Shown here: one piece after another, positions 1 to 4,878 of the stretch | Numbering within the stretch: the first letter of the stretch is position 1 | Layout of the letters: each line of letters starts with the position of its first letter | From: a virus | Lineage: Duplodnaviria; Heunggongvirae; Uroviricota; Caudoviricetes | Length of the DNA: 4,878 nucleotides | Virus record (IMG/VR): IMGVR_UViG_2648501318_000008 | Direction: 5' to 3' (one strand) | The notes under the pieces: model-generated | Databases searched by the model: none | What the model saw: the letters and a program-made list of their open reading frames with translations, nothing else | What the model was told of the DNA's origin: nothing | Program-made: the position numbers and the translations under genes

Positions 1-534
1 AATCTTGGTCAGCCAGCAGGCACGACACCGGAAGCCGATTCAGCGTATGCGCTGAAAGCCGATTCGGGCGCTGTGCAGCAGGTGATGACCGCAAGGCCGG
101 AGCAATCACACCAACTGCAGCAGCCTGAAGCCGATTCCGCCATTCAGCGGGAAGCCGATCGGGTAGTCCCGGAAAACACCGGGCAGCCTGTGGGACGAGT
201 GGATTATCCGGATGTGTTCGAACAGGTCTGGCGGGAATACCCGTTGCGTGCTGGGGCAAACCCGAAGAAATCCGCTTTCAGTGCTTGGAAGGCCAGATTA
301 CGCGAGGGGGTGTCACCAGAGGCCATGCTGGATGGCGTGAGGCGTTACGCAAGATACCTTGCGGCTACCGGGAAAACGGGAACGGAATTTGTTCAGCGAG
401 CGACGACGTTTTTTGGACCGGACCGGAATTTTGAAAACCCCTGGCTGCTCCCGGTAAGCGGCACGAACAACCAGCGTTGTGTGAATCATATTTCTGAACC
501 GGATACCGAAATTCCACCGGGCTTCAGGGGGTAA
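1..534 (+). CDS. Phage replication-initiator-like protein, C-terminal part (5' end lies upstream of the window)
   Basis: Frame 1 is open from base 1 to TAA at 532-534, so the gene starts upstream. Translation contains FEQVWREYPLRAGANPKKSAFSAWKARL...NPWLLP, which matches the pattern I recall for the conserved phage C-terminus found on replication initiation / replisome organiser proteins (F..W..YP....KK.A...W.K). Position upstream of nin-like small genes fits. Family assignment is from memory, not a search. Confidence 0.55.
   Translation, partial: NLGQPAGTTPEADSAYALKADSGAVQQVMTARPEQSHQLQQPEADSAIQREADRVVPENTGQPVGRVDYPDVFEQVWREYPLRAGANPKKSAFSAWKARLREGVSPEAMLDGVRRYARYLAATGKTGTEFVQRATTFFGPDRNFENPWLLPVSGTNNQRCVNHISEPDTEIPPGFRG
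27..166. repeat. Four iteron-like direct repeats (core GAAGCCGAT[TC]) inside the replication gene; candidate origin
   Basis: Core copies at 31-41 (GAAGCCGATTC), 56-66 (AAAGCCGATTC), 127-137 (GAAGCCGATTC), 151-160 (GAAGCCGATC), arranged as two pairs about 25 bp apart. They encode a repetitive EADS/KADS/EADR linker. By analogy with lambda ori, whose iterons lie inside the O gene linker. No adjacent AT-rich tract is visible. Confidence 0.3.
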
Positions 535-574
535 GTGTTAATTTCTGGTCATGAGGTAATTTTCAGGAGGACTT

Positions 575-985
575 GTGGCAAAAGTTTTTACACAAGAAGA
601 GCGAGAAAAAATTAAAGGGCAGGTTGTTGAACTCGTACGCCAGAGTGGGCGTGAGACGTTACGGCAACTGGAAGTCAAAACAGGTGCGACAAGATATCTG
701 ATGAGCGTTCTTGCCAGAGAGCTGGTTGCTAGTGGCGATGTATACAACTCTGGTTACGGGTTATTTCCGTCTGAACAGGCTCGTAAGGACTGGCAAAATG
801 CCCGCAAAAAATTATCGAGGGCAAAGCTGAAGAAACCGGTTGTGGTTGATCCGGACCTTATCTGGTCATTACCTGACGGAGAAATACGTCGCTACGACAG
901 TCGCCTAAACATAATCTGTCGCGAGTGCCGGAAGAGCGAAGTTATGCAGCGCATATTGTCGTTTTATCAGGGGAATTTTCAGTAG
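575..985 (+). CDS. Hypothetical phage early protein, 136 aa, possible winged-helix N-terminus
   Basis: GTG start at 575 preceded by AGGAGG at 565-570; ORF ends TAG 983-985. No recognisable catalytic motif. The overlapping minus-strand ORF 538-747 has no comparable signals. Confidence 0.55.
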   Translation: MAKVFTQEEREKIKGQVVELVRQSGRETLRQLEVKTGATRYLMSVLARELVASGDVYNSGYGLFPSEQARKDWQNARKKLSRAKLKKPVVVDPDLIWSLPDGEIRRYDSRLNIICRECRKSEVMQRILSFYQGNFQ

Positions 986-1054
986 GTGGTGCTGTGAGTG
1001 AAATTAGCTATCAGGCTTCAATTGCCGCTGGCATTCGCATCAAAGGAGAGGAGC

Positions 1055-1411
1055 ATGGAAATAAAACCAGAAGATGAGTTAAGTAATATTGTTTTATTTC
1101 CGGTAAAAGAGGATGACCCACGTAATCAGGTTAATTTTCTTTATGAGCCATCGGAAAGACCATACTGCCATCACGCCTCTGTCCGGGTTGACGAAAAAGA
1201 TCGCCAGGTCCGCTGTAAAATCTGCGGTGCAGTTGTGGAGCCATTTGACTGGATGCTCTCTGTGGCGAAAAGAGAAACCAGGCTGGCAGATGATGTAAAG
1301 CTATTGCGCCAGGAGGAACAGGAAAGGCGGAAAAATATAGAAAAGTTAATTCAGATTGAGCGTAACGCGAAAGCGCGGATACGCAGGGCGACAAAATCCA
1401 TAACTGAATAA
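1055..1411 (+). CDS. Hypothetical protein with zinc-ribbon-like C-x-H-H...C-x-x-C motif and basic coiled-coil tail (118 aa from ATG 1055; track start 998 is a GTG further upstream)
   Basis: ATG at 1055 preceded by GGAGAGGAG; motif PYCHHASV...(14)...CKICGAV; C-terminal LLRQEEQERRKNIEKLIQIERNAKARIRR is heptad-like and basic. Stop TAA 1409-1411. Confidence 0.55.
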   Translation: MEIKPEDELSNIVLFPVKEDDPRNQVNFLYEPSERPYCHHASVRVDEKDRQVRCKICGAVVEPFDWMLSVAKRETRLADDVKLLRQEEQERRKNIEKLIQIERNAKARIRRATKSITE

Positions 1412-1447
1412 TTAAATTTAGCACTGTAAATAAAATCAAATCCTTAA

Positions 1448-1500
1448 CCGGAGGGATTTCTGCACCCTCAAATCATCCGGAGGCCGCCCGAAAGGGCGGT
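1448..1500 (+). promoter_or_regulatory. Structured intergenic element: direct repeat CCGGAGG (1448-1454, 1477-1483), each copy opening a stem-loop; the second is a GC stem with GAAA tetraloop
   Basis: Hairpin 1: GAGGG 1451-1455 pairs with CCCTC 1465-1469 (9-nt loop). Hairpin 2: CCGCCC 1484-1489, GAAA, GGGCGG 1494-1499. No U-tract follows on either strand, so it is not a classic intrinsic terminator. It resembles boxB-like or RNA-processing hairpins and sits between the replication module and the small-gene block. Confidence 0.3.
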
Positions 1501-1535
1501 AATAAAAATGGCTGAACTAATCGGAGAATAAAACG

Positions 1536-1718
1536 ATGAAAAACCGTAAAGCAAAGATTCTGTTAGTTCGTAGAAACGCTCCTGGCGTCTGGCAGTGGGT
1601 GAGACTCAGCAACCGACGGATGGGGTTAATGAAACATTACGGGATGATGGATTGTGGTTTTTGCAAAAAGCCTACCGCGGCACAGAACAGGCGGAAGAAA
1701 GGGTACGCAGTACGATGA
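1536..1718 (+). CDS. Small basic protein, 60 aa, paralog A of a tandem pair
   Basis: ATG 1536 with GGAG at 1523-1526. Shares MKNRKAK, QW.R.SNRR and AAQNR blocks with the next ORF. Stop TGA 1716-1718 overlaps the next start (ATGA). Confidence 0.45.
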   Translation: MKNRKAKILLVRRNAPGVWQWVRLSNRRMGLMKHYGMMDCGFCKKPTAAQNRRKKGYAVR

Positions 1719-1906
1719 AAAACCGTAAAGCAAAGATGCTTATTTCCCGTGTATACAGACGTTGCCATCCCAGCCAGTGGTTGAGAGTTAGCAATCGCCG
1801 TGTGGTGTTGTACTTATATTCTGGAATTGCCAGAGAGGGAGTCAAAGATAAGCGCAGCGCGGCGCAAAACCGCTGGAAAAACCACTTGCGTACTAAAGGA
1901 GAGTGA
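1715..1906 (+). CDS. Small basic protein, 63 aa, paralog B of the tandem pair
   Basis: ATG 1715 lies inside the track ORF 1595-1906 and overlaps the stop of paralog A. The 26 nt around the start (ACGATGAAAAACCGTAAAGCAAAGAT) are identical to those around the paralog A start. Differences in the conserved SNRR block are synonymous (aac/aat, cga/cgc, cgg/cgt), which argues for real coding sequence. Confidence 0.45.
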   Translation: MKNRKAKMLISRVYRRCHPSQWLRVSNRRVVLYLYSGIAREGVKDKRSAAQNRWKNHLRTKGE

Positions 1907-1907
1907 T

Positions 1908-2123
1908 ATGGCTATCGCTGCAAGTTACACCATGCATCTCTATTGTGATTGCCTCCAGTGTACAAATGGCAAATATAAGTCGCCAGATTTTGGTGAGTAT
2001 ATCGGTACGTCATGGGCTGGCTGTGCAAAAGAGGCACGTAAAGATGGGTGGCGAATAAGCGCCGACAAAACGCGTGCTTTTGCGCCAGGGCATAAAATTT
2101 TGAGGAGCAACAAAGGAGAGTGA
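1908..2123 (+). CDS. Small Cys-rich protein, 72 aa (CDC..C...C), possible zinc finger
   Basis: ATG 1908 follows AAAGGAGAG and a TGA-T-ATG junction with the upstream gene. Cysteines at 13, 15, 18 and 39. The track ORF 1800-2123 is an N-terminal extension without a ribosome-binding site. Confidence 0.45.
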   Translation: MAIAASYTMHLYCDCLQCTNGKYKSPDFGEYIGTSWAGCAKEARKDGWRISADKTRAFAPGHKILRSNKGE

Positions 2124-2124
2124 T

Positions 2125-2343
2125 ATGCCTACATTATTCAGAAAAGAATATCCGCGAAAAAGTAGAGCGACAGAATTTTTGTTTCTCATTCTGTTTATCG
2201 TGTTGATGATACCGATATCCCCGCTATTACTGGCCTGGATAATCGGAAAAGTAATTGAGCCCGTTATTGAATTGTATAACGACGTTGTATGGGCCCCGTT
2301 CAACACACTGCACAATAAAATTAATCCGTATAAGGAAAACTGA
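2125..2343 (+). CDS. Small single-pass membrane protein, 72 aa
   Basis: ATG 2125 after an identical AAAGGAGAGTGATATG junction. Hydrophobic segment FLFLILFIVLMIPISPLLLAWII (about 23 aa) flanked by basic residues. Confidence 0.45.
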   Translation: MPTLFRKEYPRKSRATEFLFLILFIVLMIPISPLLLAWIIGKVIEPVIELYNDVVWAPFNTLHNKINPYKEN

Positions 2344-2344
2344 T

Positions 2345-2608
2345 ATGGCAACTTTGACAAAAAAAGAACAGGCATGGTTGAACGAATTACAGGACGTCAT
2401 TGATCGCTGTCCATCACCGAAAAAAATTGGCTTTTACACCATTGGCGATAAAAACATTTACCTGTATGACCTACGCCGCATGGATGAAATCATGGAGGCT
2501 CTTGATAATCGTTCGTCGGTGGATTGGTGTGTTGCTGTTCATGATATGAATGCAGGGTTTGATGAAAAGATTTTGTTCCCCTCATCAGTTGAAAGCACTG
2601 CGGGTTAA
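2345..2608 (+). CDS. Hypothetical protein, 87 aa
   Basis: ATG 2345 in a third TGA-T-ATG junction (2341-2347). The track ORF 2255-2608 extends upstream in frame, but the internal ATG fits the coupled-junction pattern. Stop TAA 2606-2608. Confidence 0.45.
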   Translation: MATLTKKEQAWLNELQDVIDRCPSPKKIGFYTIGDKNIYLYDLRRMDEIMEALDNRSSVDWCVAVHDMNAGFDEKILFPSSVESTAG

Positions 2609-2618
2609 GGAGTAACAC

Positions 2619-2963
2619 ATGACCACTTTTACCAGAGAGCAGTTAATAACTCACGCAGAGGAGACTATTGAAGCACAGAGACTGTGCATACCAGGCACAA
2701 TCGACCATGACATCATCCGCACATATAAAATGGATATTGCTGTTTTGGAAATCGCATTGGCATCGCTGGCAGCAGAGCCAGCCGGTAAATTGCATGAATA
2801 CAAACCAGTGGGATATCAGCGTCTGGTCGACGAGTTAACCATGCTGGTAAAGCAGTTAACCTGGCAACTGAGGAAAGTGAAGCCGGACTGTAAATTGCCG
2901 GATAAGGCGATGGACTACCTGAAGCGGAACGAACTGATAAGCGCGGAGGATGTTTTGCGATGA
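2619..2963 (+). CDS. Hypothetical protein, 114 aa
   Basis: ATG 2619 with AAGGAG at 2607-2612 (6-nt spacing); clean ORF to TGA 2961-2963. Confidence 0.55.
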
Positions 2964-3043
2964 CCTGGCCTGAAGCATTCACAACGGTAGGAATTGCAAT
3001 GGCGGTGGCGCTGGTGGTGTATTCGATTTGCCGCTGGGGTTGA
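2960..3043 (+). CDS. Possible small hydrophobic peptide, 27 aa ([27 protein letters not shown])
   Basis: ATG 2960 overlaps the upstream stop (ATGA), suggesting translational coupling. Almost entirely one transmembrane-like helix. Below the ORF-track size cutoff; no homology check possible. Confidence 0.25.
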
Positions 3044-3073
3044 CGAAAACGGAGGCACAAAGTTATATTTTCT

Positions 3074-3109
3074 CTGTGTGGTCGGTAACTCGCCCACACA
3101 GTTTGTGTT
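3074..3109 (+). terminator. Candidate intrinsic terminator closing the phage small-gene operon
   Basis: Perfect 8-bp inverted repeat CTGTGTGG (3074-3081) / CCACACAG (3094-3101) with a 12-nt loop, followed by TTTGTGTT. The loop is long for a terminator, so an operator is an alternative. Confidence 0.35.
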
Positions 3110-3125
3110 CGTAAAAATACCATGT

Positions 3126-3134
3126 TGTTAGAAT
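3126..3134 (+). promoter_or_regulatory. Candidate extended -10 promoter (TGtTAGAAT) for the AT-rich cassette
   Basis: TG at 3126-3127 and TAGAAT at 3129-3134, about 25-30 nt upstream of the cassette's first start codon. No good -35 hexamer, which is consistent with an extended -10 promoter. Confidence 0.3.
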
Positions 3135-3159
3135 GTCGTATGCGGATTCATAAGGATAA

Positions 3160-3453
3160 ATGATGAAATTCACAGGGCTACAGTCGTCAGCGTTACCTGA
3201 TACTTCTGATTCAGTAAAAGAGTGTGTGAATCTCGGGCAGTGGATGCTGTTCAAATCTTATGCGCATGAAGTAACCACAACATTTGAAGTGGTGTTTTTT
3301 CTGAAAACTGGCGATGAAATATTTGGTTTGAATGAAAGAGGGCAAATAACGTCCACCCAAATTACTGAACATTTAAGCATCGATGAGCTTTTTTACTTTA
3401 TTGATATACCAAAGCCACCATCTTTCAGTAATGCAATGCCTCCTAAATATTAA
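3160..3453 (+). CDS. Small acidic protein, 96-97 aa, first gene of the AT-rich cassette; unknown function
   Basis: Tandem ATGs at 3160 and 3163; AAGGA at 3152-3156 fits the second better. Net acidic by my count (about 12 D/E versus 7 K/R). AT-rich. Its translation-initiation region GATTCATAAGGATA matches that of the downstream gene at 13 of 14 positions. Confidence 0.55.
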   Translation: MMKFTGLQSSALPDTSDSVKECVNLGQWMLFKSYAHEVTTTFEVVFFLKTGDEIFGLNERGQITSTQITEHLSIDELFYFIDIPKPPSFSNAMPPKY

Positions 3454-3493
3454 CAAAATTTTAACTTAAAACATTCGAATCATAAGGATATGT

Positions 3494-4390
3494 ATGAGCC
3501 TTAGGTCTGAGCGTACGAAATGGGTTATGTTTTTGCCTTGTTCTAAAGAAGAAGTTGAATCGCGCCACGTTTTGGATATTGTTTTTGGCGTGCTATGTCT
3601 TGAGAAGGCCGGTATAAATCCACGAGACATATCAATATATATTGACAGCCCTAACAGGAATTTTGATGATTTTTTTTCATCAGCCTCGAAGTATCCTTAT
3701 GCGTCAAAAGCATCAGCAGATTTCTTTAATGACTTGCGTGATAATAACTACAATAACATAGTAATGTTTGTTACTGGTCATGGTTGCCCACAAGGACTGG
3801 ATGCAAAAAATCCTATTACTCCTCATCAACTTCTCAAGGCTTTAAAAGGAGCACCTAATTTAAACAATGCTATTGTTTATTTTGGACAGTGTTATGCAGG
3901 TACGTTCAATTTTGTTGGGGCGGGTAAAAGAAAGGATGGCGAGCCTGAGGTTGTTTTAATTGGGGCGACTAATCTTACTGAGAGTCTGAGTATAGCGACT
4001 ACTGAAACGTTTCTTGATGGAGATGAATTTCCTTGGACGGCCAATATTTTTCTCCTTCATGTTTTTAAATGGATGTCAAAACCTTCTGATATAGATGGTG
4101 ATGGCCGTTATACTGTAATGGATTCTTATAAGCATGCTGGTATTTTTACTAACTTTGTGAATAAAAAAACAAAAACAGATATGTTTGGTGAGATAATTAA
4201 TATGCATGCAGAGTGTAATAAACTCATGGCACTGGCTTCTTCGGGGACAGGGAATTGGATAATTGATACGACAAATGAGTTAAATTATAAAGCCAAAAAA
4301 ACACAACTACAAAATTTATTGATTGCGCACCACACTCATCAAGAATGTTGGATATTAAATGCAAGACCAGCGCAAAAAATTGAGTTTTGA
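3494..4390 (+). CDS. Putative clan CD / family C13 (legumain-like, caspase-fold) cysteine peptidase, 298 aa, no signal peptide
   Basis: ATG 3494 with AAGGA at 3484-3488. Hydrophobic strand then His-Gly (NIVMFVTGHG, His96) and hydrophobic strand then Cys (AIVYFGQCYAG, Cys133), 37 residues apart. N-terminal KWVMFLPCS...RH...AGINPRDISIYID and later VVLIGATNLTESLSIA parallel, from memory, legumain KHWVVIVAGS...RH...NGIPDEQIVVMMYDD, FIYFTDHG, VFYIEACESG and NVYATTAANPRESSYA. Needs profile or structure confirmation. Confidence 0.6.
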   Translation: MSLRSERTKWVMFLPCSKEEVESRHVLDIVFGVLCLEKAGINPRDISIYIDSPNRNFDDFFSSASKYPYASKASADFFNDLRDNNYNNIVMFVTGHGCPQGLDAKNPITPHQLLKALKGAPNLNNAIVYFGQCYAGTFNFVGAGKRKDGEPEVVLIGATNLTESLSIATTETFLDGDEFPWTANIFLLHVFKWMSKPSDIDGDGRYTVMDSYKHAGIFTNFVNKKTKTDMFGEIINMHAECNKLMALASSGTGNWIIDTTNELNYKAKKTQLQNLLIAHHTHQECWILNARPAQKIEF

Positions 4391-4696
4391 CTAATCGTTA
4401 TGTCAATTAATTACAATAACGACTTATCATGGTGAGCAAAAACGGTTTGCGGGAAAAGGAGAGTTAAGTAGAATTGCTGCGGGTGCTTGAGGCTATCTGC
4501 CTCGGGCATGAACACCAAAAGGCAGATAGAGAAAAGCCCCAGTTAACATTACGCGTCCTGCAAGACGCTTAACATTAATCTGAGGCCCAATCTATGTCTC
4601 ACAAATGTAGGTTAGCCTCTTACGTGCCGAAAGGCAAGGAGAAGCAGGCTATTGTTAACACCAAGCTGTAATGTCCCCTTTGAACCATTCTAAAAT

Positions 4697-4726
4697 GTCC
4701 CCAGACAATTCTCTGGGGGATTTTTC
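4697..4726 (+). terminator. Canonical intrinsic terminator immediately upstream of, and overlapping the ribosome-binding site of, the transposase-like gene
   Basis: Stem CCCCAGA 4699-4705 / TCTGGGG 4712-4718 (plus flanking T-A and G-U pairs), 6-nt loop CAATTC, then GGGGGATTTTTC with five Ts at 4721-4725. The GGGGGA inside the stem is the likely Shine-Dalgarno for ATG 4727. Confidence 0.5.
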
Positions 4727-4878
4727 ATGATCAAAGAGACTGTTACGATGAGTCATAAGGAACTCCACCGACTTCAGATTATTCAGGAGTCAATTAATCG
4801 ACATATTACTCAGGAACAAGCTGCGGCACGCATTGGCATTTCTATTCGGCAGGTTAAACGTCTGGTGCAACGGTATAG
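4727..4878 (+). CDS. Transposase-like HTH protein, N-terminal fragment (IS element, possibly ISNCY or IS481-type); continues past the window end
   Basis: ATG 4727 (alternative in-frame ATG 4748). Translation MIKETVTMSHKELHRLQIIQESINRHITQEQAAARIGISIRQVKRLVQRY is a classic N-terminal helix-turn-helix of IS transposases (compare IS21 IstA ...IATQIGCSERTVRRYLK). Family is from memory and uncertain; IS boundaries are not determinable here. Confidence 0.45.
   Translation, partial: MIKETVTMSHKELHRLQIIQESINRHITQEQAAARIGISIRQVKRLVQRY

Follow-up and report, generated by a model that had tools for sequence, protein, structure and literature searches.

The legumain-type peptidases described so far are chiefly enzymes of the lysosomes and vacuoles of eukaryotes, the peptide ligases of plants, and glycosylphosphatidylinositol (GPI) transamidase. 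In bacterial gasdermin systems, which occur in defense islands, a clan-CD protease sits beside its substrate in a compact operon, and removal of a short C-terminal peptide from the substrate triggers activity. Small precursors with a conserved C-terminal motif, whose dispensable tail is removed by a dedicated Cys or JAB enzyme, are likewise found in Bil operons, in CBASS (Cap2/Cap3), and in the reactions of sortase and GPI8. Here we describe a two-gene cassette, orfA-orfB, in a 4,878-nucleotide stretch of viral DNA (IMG/VR record IMGVR_UViG_2648501318_000008; Caudoviricetes), which is referred to throughout, at its full length, as the window and which is the early-right region of a lambda-like (lambdoid) Escherichia coli prophage. 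The cassette constitutes an uncharacterized, cross-phylum module, carried by prophages and defense islands, in which a small acidic protein is paired with a legumain-like peptidase.

The structurally nearest relatives of orfB are legumain, the asparaginyl endopeptidases (AEPs), and the peptide asparaginyl ligases (PALs) (MEROPS family C13, clan CD), although identity is only 13 to 14%. In contrast to legumain, orfB is bacterial and predicted to be cytoplasmic, lacks a signal peptide, and has Gly in place of E187; the LSAM prodomain is also absent, and an EF-hand-like loop, a two-helix hairpin, and a C-terminal QExWILN are present instead. In its presumed mode of action, the module is comparable to the clan-CD proteases of bacterial immunity (gasdermin-protease operons, type IV Thoeris, and CHAT systems). 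The locus resembles the gasdermin-protease operons in being small and in placing a clan-CD protease next to its putative substrate. It differs from them in that the orfA protein (~93 amino acids) shows no gasdermin fold match and has tails as short as one residue, too short for auto-inhibition, and in that orfB is C13-like rather than C14/CHAT and has no sensor domain. The caspase-like effector of type IV Thoeris, SAVED-CHAT, and TPR-CHAT (Craspase) are activated by nucleotide signals via sensor domains or by a TIR or CRISPR partner, whereas orfA-orfB has neither a signaling enzyme nor a ligand-binding domain. As in ubiquitin-like conjugation (Bil, CBASS), orfA is a small precursor-like protein with a conserved C-terminal motif and a tail; unlike those systems, the locus has no E1 or E2, no beta-grasp was detected, and the motif ends in Asn rather than Gly-Gly, so that conjugation would be purely hypothetical. 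As a piece of phage DNA, the cassette is like the morons described by Hendrix, namely, an extra unit of deviant composition between backbone genes, with a terminator-like hairpin and promoter-like elements upstream, that is present in some relatives and absent from others. It does not differ from them in kind; as an island it is unremarkable, a textbook prophage moron, and the novelty lies solely in what it carries.

RESULTS

Composition and insertion of the cassette

The initial annotation of the window had described positions 3150 to 4440 as an island visibly richer in A and T than the flanking phage genes. This was borne out by computation. The G+C content of 3150 to 4440 is 36.3% (469/1,291) compared to 47.3% in the remainder of the window (z = -8.0; binomial P value = 1.2e-15), and in sliding windows it falls from 44 to 51% at 2700 to 3100 to 33 to 39% at 3100 to 4400 before returning to 41 to 44% past 4400. 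The G+C content at third codon positions (GC3) is 0.35 in orfA and 0.28 in orfB versus 0.42 to 0.60 in nine flanking open reading frames (ORFs), giving pooled values of 0.30 for the cassette and 0.50 for the flanks (Fisher P value = 4e-11). Synonymous codon usage also differs between cassette and flanks (chi-square = 85; 41 degrees of freedom; P value = 6e-5), and the cassette is thus significantly unlike its surroundings in both G+C content and codon usage. Moreover, in a 24-kb prophage of E. coli 14EC029 that carries an identical cassette, the cassette is the G+C minimum among 452 sliding windows of 1,291 bp (median, 47.9%). Seven of the 12 homopolymeric A or T runs of at least 6 nucleotides in the window fall inside the island, and the A/T-rich string that had been quoted as an example, AATTTTGATGATTTTTTTTCATCAG, was located at 3659. 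The flanks, which had been put at roughly 50% G+C, were measured at 47 to 48% (47.7% at 1 to 3050) and are themselves patchy, with 59% at 1 to 300 and 39 to 41% at 2101 to 2600; the value at 4441 to 4878 is 45.4%. The patch at 2101 to 2600 is a second, milder AT-rich segment of a phage flank that is itself mosaic, and it contains a DUF4014-type membrane ORF (2125 to 2343; 38.4% G+C).

Alignment with phage vB_EcoS-689R5, which has ~94% identical flanks and no cassette, delimited an AT-rich inserted segment (moron) of ~1.39 kb and 36.7% G+C at 3040 to 4437 on the plus strand, with the left breakpoint falling within 3040 to 3052 and the right one within 4437 to 4445. In vB_EcoS-689R5, a 27-codon ORF joins the hok leader directly, and hok-leader matches in 666 genomes begin exactly at window position 4437. 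The 7-bp direct repeat AAAACGG is found at both junctions (3046 to 3052 on the left and 4439 to 4445 on the right), while the empty site has the single copy ATAAAAACGG. Because the bases adjoining the two copies are not identical (ATA versus TTGACG), microhomology-mediated illegitimate recombination is preferred over target-site duplication. A transposon-like origin was rejected, given that the insert has no transposase or integrase, only weak long-range inverted repeats (75 to 81%), and an unclean junction repeat. The 27-codon ORF beside the left junction (2960 to 3043) is hydrophobic, overlaps the preceding gene at the stop codon of the latter (ATGA), and is kept in cassette-free phages; the insertion converted its own stop codon, TAA, into TGA.

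Among 5,426 complete E. coli genomes, the cassette was found in 12 (9 at ≥99% identity and 3 at ~92.5%) and the uninterrupted junction in 477. All 12 carriers have the cassette at the same two junctions, including the 92.5% variant, whose prophage differs in its replication module. Since this variant shares the exact junctions despite its different module, the comparison points to a single ancestral insertion between the small phage ORF and the hok/sok leader, which would then have spread by recombination among prophage backbones. A protein of 126 residues from E. coli (P0125; annotated DUF7167) is 89% identical to orfA across 73% of the length of orfA, which suggests that, in some E. coli strains, the left junction is a different one or the gene has been fused.

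The initial annotation had proposed that the cassette was acquired horizontally and separately from the phage backbone, and it had held that occurrence in all related phages with the same composition would speak against this. The opposite was found, as the site is polymorphic, being empty in vB_EcoS-689R5 and in 477 genomes and occupied in 12. Together with composition, codon usage, and the mostly AT-rich homologous cassettes borne by unrelated prophages, at different positions, and by non-phage islands in distant phyla, these counts support the proposal, and we consider separate acquisition highly probable. It might still be argued that the low G+C content reflects no more than the usual mosaicism of lambdoid early regions, since the backbone has other AT-rich patches, not only at 2101 to 2600 but also in the 14EC029 prophage, where dicB and another small ORF have 34 to 36% G+C. 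That explanation is scarcely credible in the face of a clean insertion-deletion polymorphism with 477 empty sites, the position of the cassette as the lowest of 452 windows, and cross-phylum homologues that are AT-rich within hosts of 60 to 70% G+C.

orfB encodes a legumain-like cysteine peptidase

orfB (3494 to 4390, plus strand) encodes 298 amino acids that were modeled with high confidence (predicted local distance difference test [pLDDT] score, 91.5) as a caspase-hemoglobinase alpha/beta/alpha fold that also includes an EF-hand-like loop and, at the C terminus, a helical hairpin. The catalytic arrangement is that of legumain, with the His of an H-G pair after strand 3 and the Cys after strand 4. 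Conservation was assessed in 35 sequences from at least eight phyla. The catalytic His, in G95-H96-G97 (3776 to 3784), is present in all 35 and aligns with legumain H148-G; the catalytic Cys, in G131-Q132-C133 (3884 to 3892), is present in 33 and aligns with the E-A-C of legumain (C189), and the two exceptions both appear frameshifted. In a profile alignment, R24-H25-V-L-D28 (3563 to 3577) matches legumain R44-H45-Q-A-D48, which includes residues of the S1 pocket. R24 (33/35), D28 (34/35), and S164 (33/35) are nearly invariant, and position 25 is His or Phe; from a reading of the legumain sequence, S164 would correspond to S215.

A single-sequence phmmer search of the PDB with orfB returned only noise, and a profile search was required. 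The family profile matched only plant AEPs and PALs, with a best E value of 7e-4, and the nearest solved structures include the AEP-type ligases OaAEP1, VyPAL, and butelase-like PALs as well as GPI transamidase. Eighteen of 40 orfB relatives matched the Pfam family PF01650, Peptidase_C13 (E ≤ 0.1; best, 2.8e-6), and none of the 40 matched C14. orfB is therefore best placed beside C13, as a divergent sister group, and not among its curated members. From its sequence and its structure model, we are confident that it is an active, divergent legumain-like cysteine peptidase, and, since its N terminus is strand beta-1 with no signal peptide, it is probably cytoplasmic.

Three further features mark the family, namely, an invariant DxDxDG loop, a long two-helix hairpin (residues 208 to 280), and the conserved C-terminal QExWILN. 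In the window, the loop reads D199-I-D-G-D-G-R-Y-T-V-M-D210 (4088 to 4123, plus strand; DIDGDGRYTVMD), with D199, D201, G202, D203, and D210 invariant. It lies between helices 185 to 195 and 208 to 249, forming a helix-loop-helix in the structure model, and its resemblance to an EF-hand suggests a possible Ca2+ site and, by analogy with metacaspases, Ca2+ control. The family comprises at least 220 proteins of ~296 amino acids with 45 to 72% identity in enterobacteria, Pseudomonas, Burkholderia, Vibrio, and Xanthomonas. Distant members (28 to 38% identity) occur in Spirochaetes, Cyanobacteria, Melainabacteria, Bacteroidota, Clostridia, Bdellovibrio, Myxococcales, and delta- and alphaproteobacteria. 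No PHROG family matched orfB, for which scans of PADLOC, NCBIfam, and Pfam yielded nothing beyond a C13 match below threshold.

orfA carries a C-terminal motif ending in Asn

orfA (3160 to 3453, plus strand) encodes a protein of 97 amino acids that is acidic (pI 4.8) and has no recognized fold; the probable start is the second ATG, at 3163, preceded by a Shine-Dalgarno (SD) sequence, AAGGA, at 3152 to 3156. Its structure model is poor (pLDDT score, 58), and a fold search with this model found no fold. No Pfam, NCBIfam, or PADLOC family matched orfA, and domain-family scans revealed no helix-turn-helix, ribbon-helix-helix, or AbrB domain. A full-length match was obtained to phrog_30138 (1.2e-62), a PHROG of unknown function that presumably derives from a prophage entry. 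Among 1.84 billion cluster representatives searched, orfA homologues formed 83 clusters, almost all of them stand-alone proteins of 87 to 105 amino acids, and in none of the 83 was orfA fused to another domain. The homologues are acidic as well (median pI, 5.0).

The most prominent feature of the family is the motif [FY]-F-x-D-[LIV]-P-x-P-x-S-L-S-N, which is followed by 1 to 14 unconserved residues and of which the P-x-P-x-S-L-S-N portion occurs in most of 76 cluster representatives. In the window, codons 3415 to 3432 specify P86-P87-S88-F89-S90-N91 (P-x-S-L-S-N in the family), with Asn91 (3430 to 3432) as the predicted P1 residue, so that the protein ends SFSN|AMPPKY; homologues end SLSN|TRLY, SIDN|FQPAWA, VVPN|FSKL, KVN|YA, and VSN|G. 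Asn is found within the final 12 residues of 33 of 35 cross-phylum orfA sequences compared to ~39% expected from Asn frequency alone. Asp or Glu occasionally takes the place of the motif Asn, which matches the P1 preferences of legumain. The orfA homologue of P. reidholzensis is no exception to this pattern, since its apparent lack of the Asn results from a +1 frameshift within a run of T residues; translated in the shifted frame, it reads ...SLSNSFP.

Because a peptidase of an Asn-directed type is strictly coupled to a small protein with an Asn-ending motif and a dispensable tail, we interpret the two proteins as an enzyme and its substrate or ligand, and we lean slightly toward orfA serving orfB in this way through its C-terminal Asn. 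In such a scheme, orfB would bind the P-x-P-x-S-L-S-N motif and attack the bond between Asn91 and Ala92, in keeping with the cleavage after Asn by legumains and asparaginyl endopeptidases, and release of the tail would yield either mature orfA or an acyl-enzyme intermediate. The EF-hand-like loop of orfB might serve as a gate for the reaction. In one version, processing would activate or mature orfA by a gasdermin-like logic, although tails of a single residue would hardly be inhibitory.

A second version would have orfB act in the manner of a PAL, of GPI transamidase, or of a sortase, forming a thioester at Asn91 of orfA, from which the tail leaves and orfA passes to an amine of a target or to its own N terminus (cyclization). 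The closest solved relatives, OaAEP1, VyPAL, the butelase-like PALs, and GPI transamidase, are of this kind, and the conserved P-side motif ending in Asn with an obligatory, unconserved tail of at least one residue recalls ubiquitin precursors and PAL substrates. Indeed, among the three versions of the mechanism considered here, an obligatory but unconserved leaving group best fits transpeptidation, and the strict conservation of two genes fits a reaction that needs no others. However, ligase and hydrolase outcomes are indistinguishable from sequence, no acceptor could be identified, orfA has no recognizable beta-grasp, and no cytoplasmic bacterial precedent was found in the literature searched. 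We regard ligation as improbable overall, and to the same low degree the idea that orfA-orfB is an ATP-independent protein-tagging immune system in which the transpeptidase ligates orfA to phage or host targets or circularizes it.

Linkage of the two genes

An orfA homologue (73 to 113 amino acids) lies immediately upstream of orfB, with a gap of 0 to 40 bp or an overlap of 4 to 13 bp, at nearly all of 42 genome loci and at every one of 28 proviral loci that have upstream sequence. It was found in Pseudomonas, Enterobacter, Burkholderia, Vibrio, Yersinia, and Xanthomonas, in the last of which it is present but uncalled. Two of the 12 E. coli carriers have an IS1 copy within orfB and an intact orfA. 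The insertions are at separate sites, involve IS1A and IS1B in opposite orientations, and lie at 2500 to 3268 of locus L059 (E. coli STEC409) and 2309 to 3101 of L060 (E. coli 0-4), equivalent to ~4121 to 4128 and ~3939 to 3954 of the window, respectively. Two independent insertions hint at a cost of orfB and might reflect counterselection of the protease. Likewise, orfB is frameshifted beside an intact orfA in two metagenome-assembled genomes (L032 and L053).

Since orfB is disrupted by IS1 or frameshifted beside intact orfA, orfA is not a constitutive toxin neutralized by orfB; this arrangement, with orfB as the antitoxin, is disfavored because the two IS1-disrupted strains are viable. The reverse toxin-antitoxin arrangement would make orfB a toxic protease and orfA its cognate inhibitor, a pseudosubstrate or suicide substrate that fills the active site with its SLSN tail until infection removes or outcompetes orfA and frees the protease. 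Inhibitors of related proteases are known, as in the actions of cystatin on legumain and of p35 on caspases. The small gene is upstream and often translationally coupled (overlaps of 4 to 13 bp), an arrangement characteristic of type II systems; the orfA proteins are acidic (median pI, 5.0); the IS1 insertions are confined to orfB; and the conserved Asn would suit a substrate-like inhibitor equally well. On the other hand, orfA lacks the DNA-binding domain usual in type II antitoxins, intact orfA is tolerated beside frameshifted orfB (L032 and L053), as is intact orfB beside frameshifted orfA (L027, which may be a sequencing error), and single-residue tails would add little inhibition on the primed side. 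An inhibitor role for orfA is thus unlikely in our estimation, albeit less so than ligation, and we retain the enzyme-substrate or enzyme-ligand relation as the working interpretation.

Distribution and genomic context

The gene pair is conserved across at least eight bacterial phyla, spanning Proteobacteria, Spirochaetes, Cyanobacteria, Bacteroidota, and Clostridia, and it is found in free-living cyanobacteria, in spirochaetes, and in predatory bacteria as well as in prophages. In nearly every host, the cassette is the more AT-rich of the two, with 37% G+C against 67 to 70% in Chromobacterium, 44 to 45% against 57 to 65% in Burkholderia and Xanthomonas, and 36 to 41% against 45 to 55% for enterobacterial proviruses. 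In a few lineages, the G+C content is ameliorated (67% in a deltaproteobacterium and 26 to 30% in Treponema). AT-richness above that of the host nearly everywhere is typical of frequently exchanged accessory modules.

At the 28 IMG/VR proviral loci, the neighbors include head-maturation protease and capsid genes (4 loci), NinB (3), integrases (3), MokW/hok (3), a tape measure gene, and HNH. In Yersinia, the pair falls within the tail/baseplate module of a myovirus-like prophage; in Burkholderia, the island that carries it also encodes a resolvase and an integrase; and in Pseudomonas, it lies downstream of a SIR2-HerA system and a PLD gene. When the 120 ORFs closest to the pair at 32 loci were compared with PADLOC models, the matches comprised SIR2, HerA, GajA (Gabija), Drt8/RT_UG10 (DRT), mad3/mad8 (MADS), AriA/PbeA-like ATPases (PARIS-like), HEC-02A/Cas3-like helicases, and a TOTE primase. 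In tblastn searches, neither orfA nor orfB matched any of 50,697 deposited GenBank phage genomes, orfB matched none of 72,556 plasmids, and a Foldseek search of BFVD returned no viral relative. Because of its absence from these three collections, the pair is better regarded as cargo of prophages and islands than as a core phage gene.

In this setting, the reaction at Asn91 might act as switch or output within a mobile conflict system whose function, supplied to the host by the prophage, would most likely be anti-phage or abortive infection. We judge an anti-phage or conflict role of the module to be an evenly balanced proposition. Alternatively, the pair might be mobile cargo with a function other than defense, such as counter-defense, processing of a small regulator, or lysogenic conversion. 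The lack of a match to any known defense family and the many roles of prophage morons are compatible with this. Nevertheless, the pair also occurs outside prophages, beside integrases, resolvases, and known defense genes; its presence in free-living cyanobacteria, spirochaetes, and predatory bacteria argues against a role in host virulence; and its absence from 50,697 phage genomes, mostly lytic, argues against a general counter-defense gene. A non-defense function accordingly ranks as the least probable of the functional alternatives, and a conflict role built on cleavage at Asn91 is the proposal carried forward here.

Several observations weigh against that proposal. With regard to the enzyme, the orfB of the window itself scores below the Pfam threshold for C13 (PF01650; 12.8 versus 22.8 bits), and two legumain residues of the S1 pocket are not conserved, as E187 is replaced by G131 and D231 has no clear equivalent. 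Moreover, His25 is Phe in cyanobacterial and Bdellovibrio clades whose partner protein still has the Asn, so that specificity for Asn is a tentative assignment. With regard to the partner, the Asn is missing from a few orfA homologues (L031, L035, and L051). With regard to defense, PADLOC-DB v2.0.0 contained no family matching orfA or orfB at E ≤ 1, the tally of defense neighbors at 32 loci consists of raw counts without a matched background, and, with no copy in 50,697 phage genomes or in BFVD, the evidence for carriage by phages consists of prophage predictions only. Finally, IS1 prefers AT-rich DNA, and both insertions in orfB may therefore be neutral. Taking these points into account, we give the whole chain, from separate acquisition through a legumain-like peptidase and an Asn91 substrate or ligand to a role in conflict, about the same chance of being right as of being wrong.

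Signals around the genes

The initial annotation had placed a terminator and a promoter in the flanks of the cassette. A hairpin was confirmed on the 5' side. It is rich in G+C, with 11-bp arms, lies at 3074 to 3101 on the plus strand, is followed by UUUGUGUU, and has a predicted folding free energy (dG) of -14.9 kcal/mol (z = -3.67). It is kept in the 92.5% variant with two changes in the arms. From its sequence it is terminator-like, and it would insulate the cassette from upstream early transcription. Promoter-like hexamers were not enriched (4 found versus 5.9 expected in shuffled sequences). One such site, TTGACG-18-TATATT (3040 to 3069, plus strand; 10/12 positions), whose -35 element was created at the junction, is thus no more than a match to the consensus. 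A putative extended -10-like element, TGTTAGAAT, was read between the hairpin and orfA, at 3126 to 3134 on the plus strand, 26 nucleotides upstream of orfA, and is conserved in the 92.5% variant. Past the stop codon of orfB, the AT-rich palindrome at 4395 to 4422 (plus strand) had been called weak, and so it proved (dG = -6.5; z = -1.8; no T run); its candidacy as a terminator was dropped as unsupported on the same values.

A 14-nucleotide repeat, GA(T/A)TCATAAGGATA, precedes both genes, at 3145 to 3158 for orfA and 3477 to 3490 for orfB. The SD sites (AAGGA) of both genes lie inside this repeated 14-mer, giving orfA and orfB a near-identical ribosome-binding context.

Other features of the prophage region

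The gene order of the window is an O-like replication protein (C-terminal part), a DUF977/LygF protein (Pfam, 1.3e-29), a string of small ORFs of the Ea22 region, which match PHROGs of unknown function, the cassette, hok/sok, and the left end of ISEsa1. The hok/sok locus was detected at 4481 to 4653 (Rfam RF01794; 114 bits). The IS1202-like element ISEsa1 starts at ~4653, directly past the AT of the hokD start codon, and occupies 4653 to 4878; the Hok toxin gene is thereby cut off, and the sok/leader region is intact. This joint between the hok leader and ISEsa1 is common to 666 complete E. coli genomes. Within the O-like replication gene, positions 28 to 159 contain GAAGCCGAT(T)C repeats, arranged as a 36-nucleotide unit that occurs twice, 96 nucleotides apart, with two copies each, and they resemble the ori iterons of lambdoid phages. 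Two adjacent ORFs, 1536 to 1718 and 1717 to 1906, begin with 29-nucleotide stretches (1533 to 1561 and 1712 to 1740) that are 97% identical (MKNRKAK...), and they look like a tandem duplication that diverged downstream.

DISCUSSION

A search of the literature found nothing on a bacterial legumain-like defense pair or on these accessions, although coverage was incomplete and PADLOC-DB dates from 2023, so that a recent description is possible. The proposal advanced here makes one sharp prediction, namely, that orfA will be cleaved or ligated at Asn91 in a manner dependent on Cys133 of orfB. If orfB were to act as a ligase, the pair might provide a two-component, genetically encodable, cytoplasmic Asn-ligase tool, and if the tagging interpretation were true, the logic of ubiquitin-like conjugation would be achieved through sortase/GPI8-like chemistry without E1 or E2 enzymes. 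If the module is an immune system, the C13 branch of clan CD would join the caspase-like proteases that are known in bacterial immunity.

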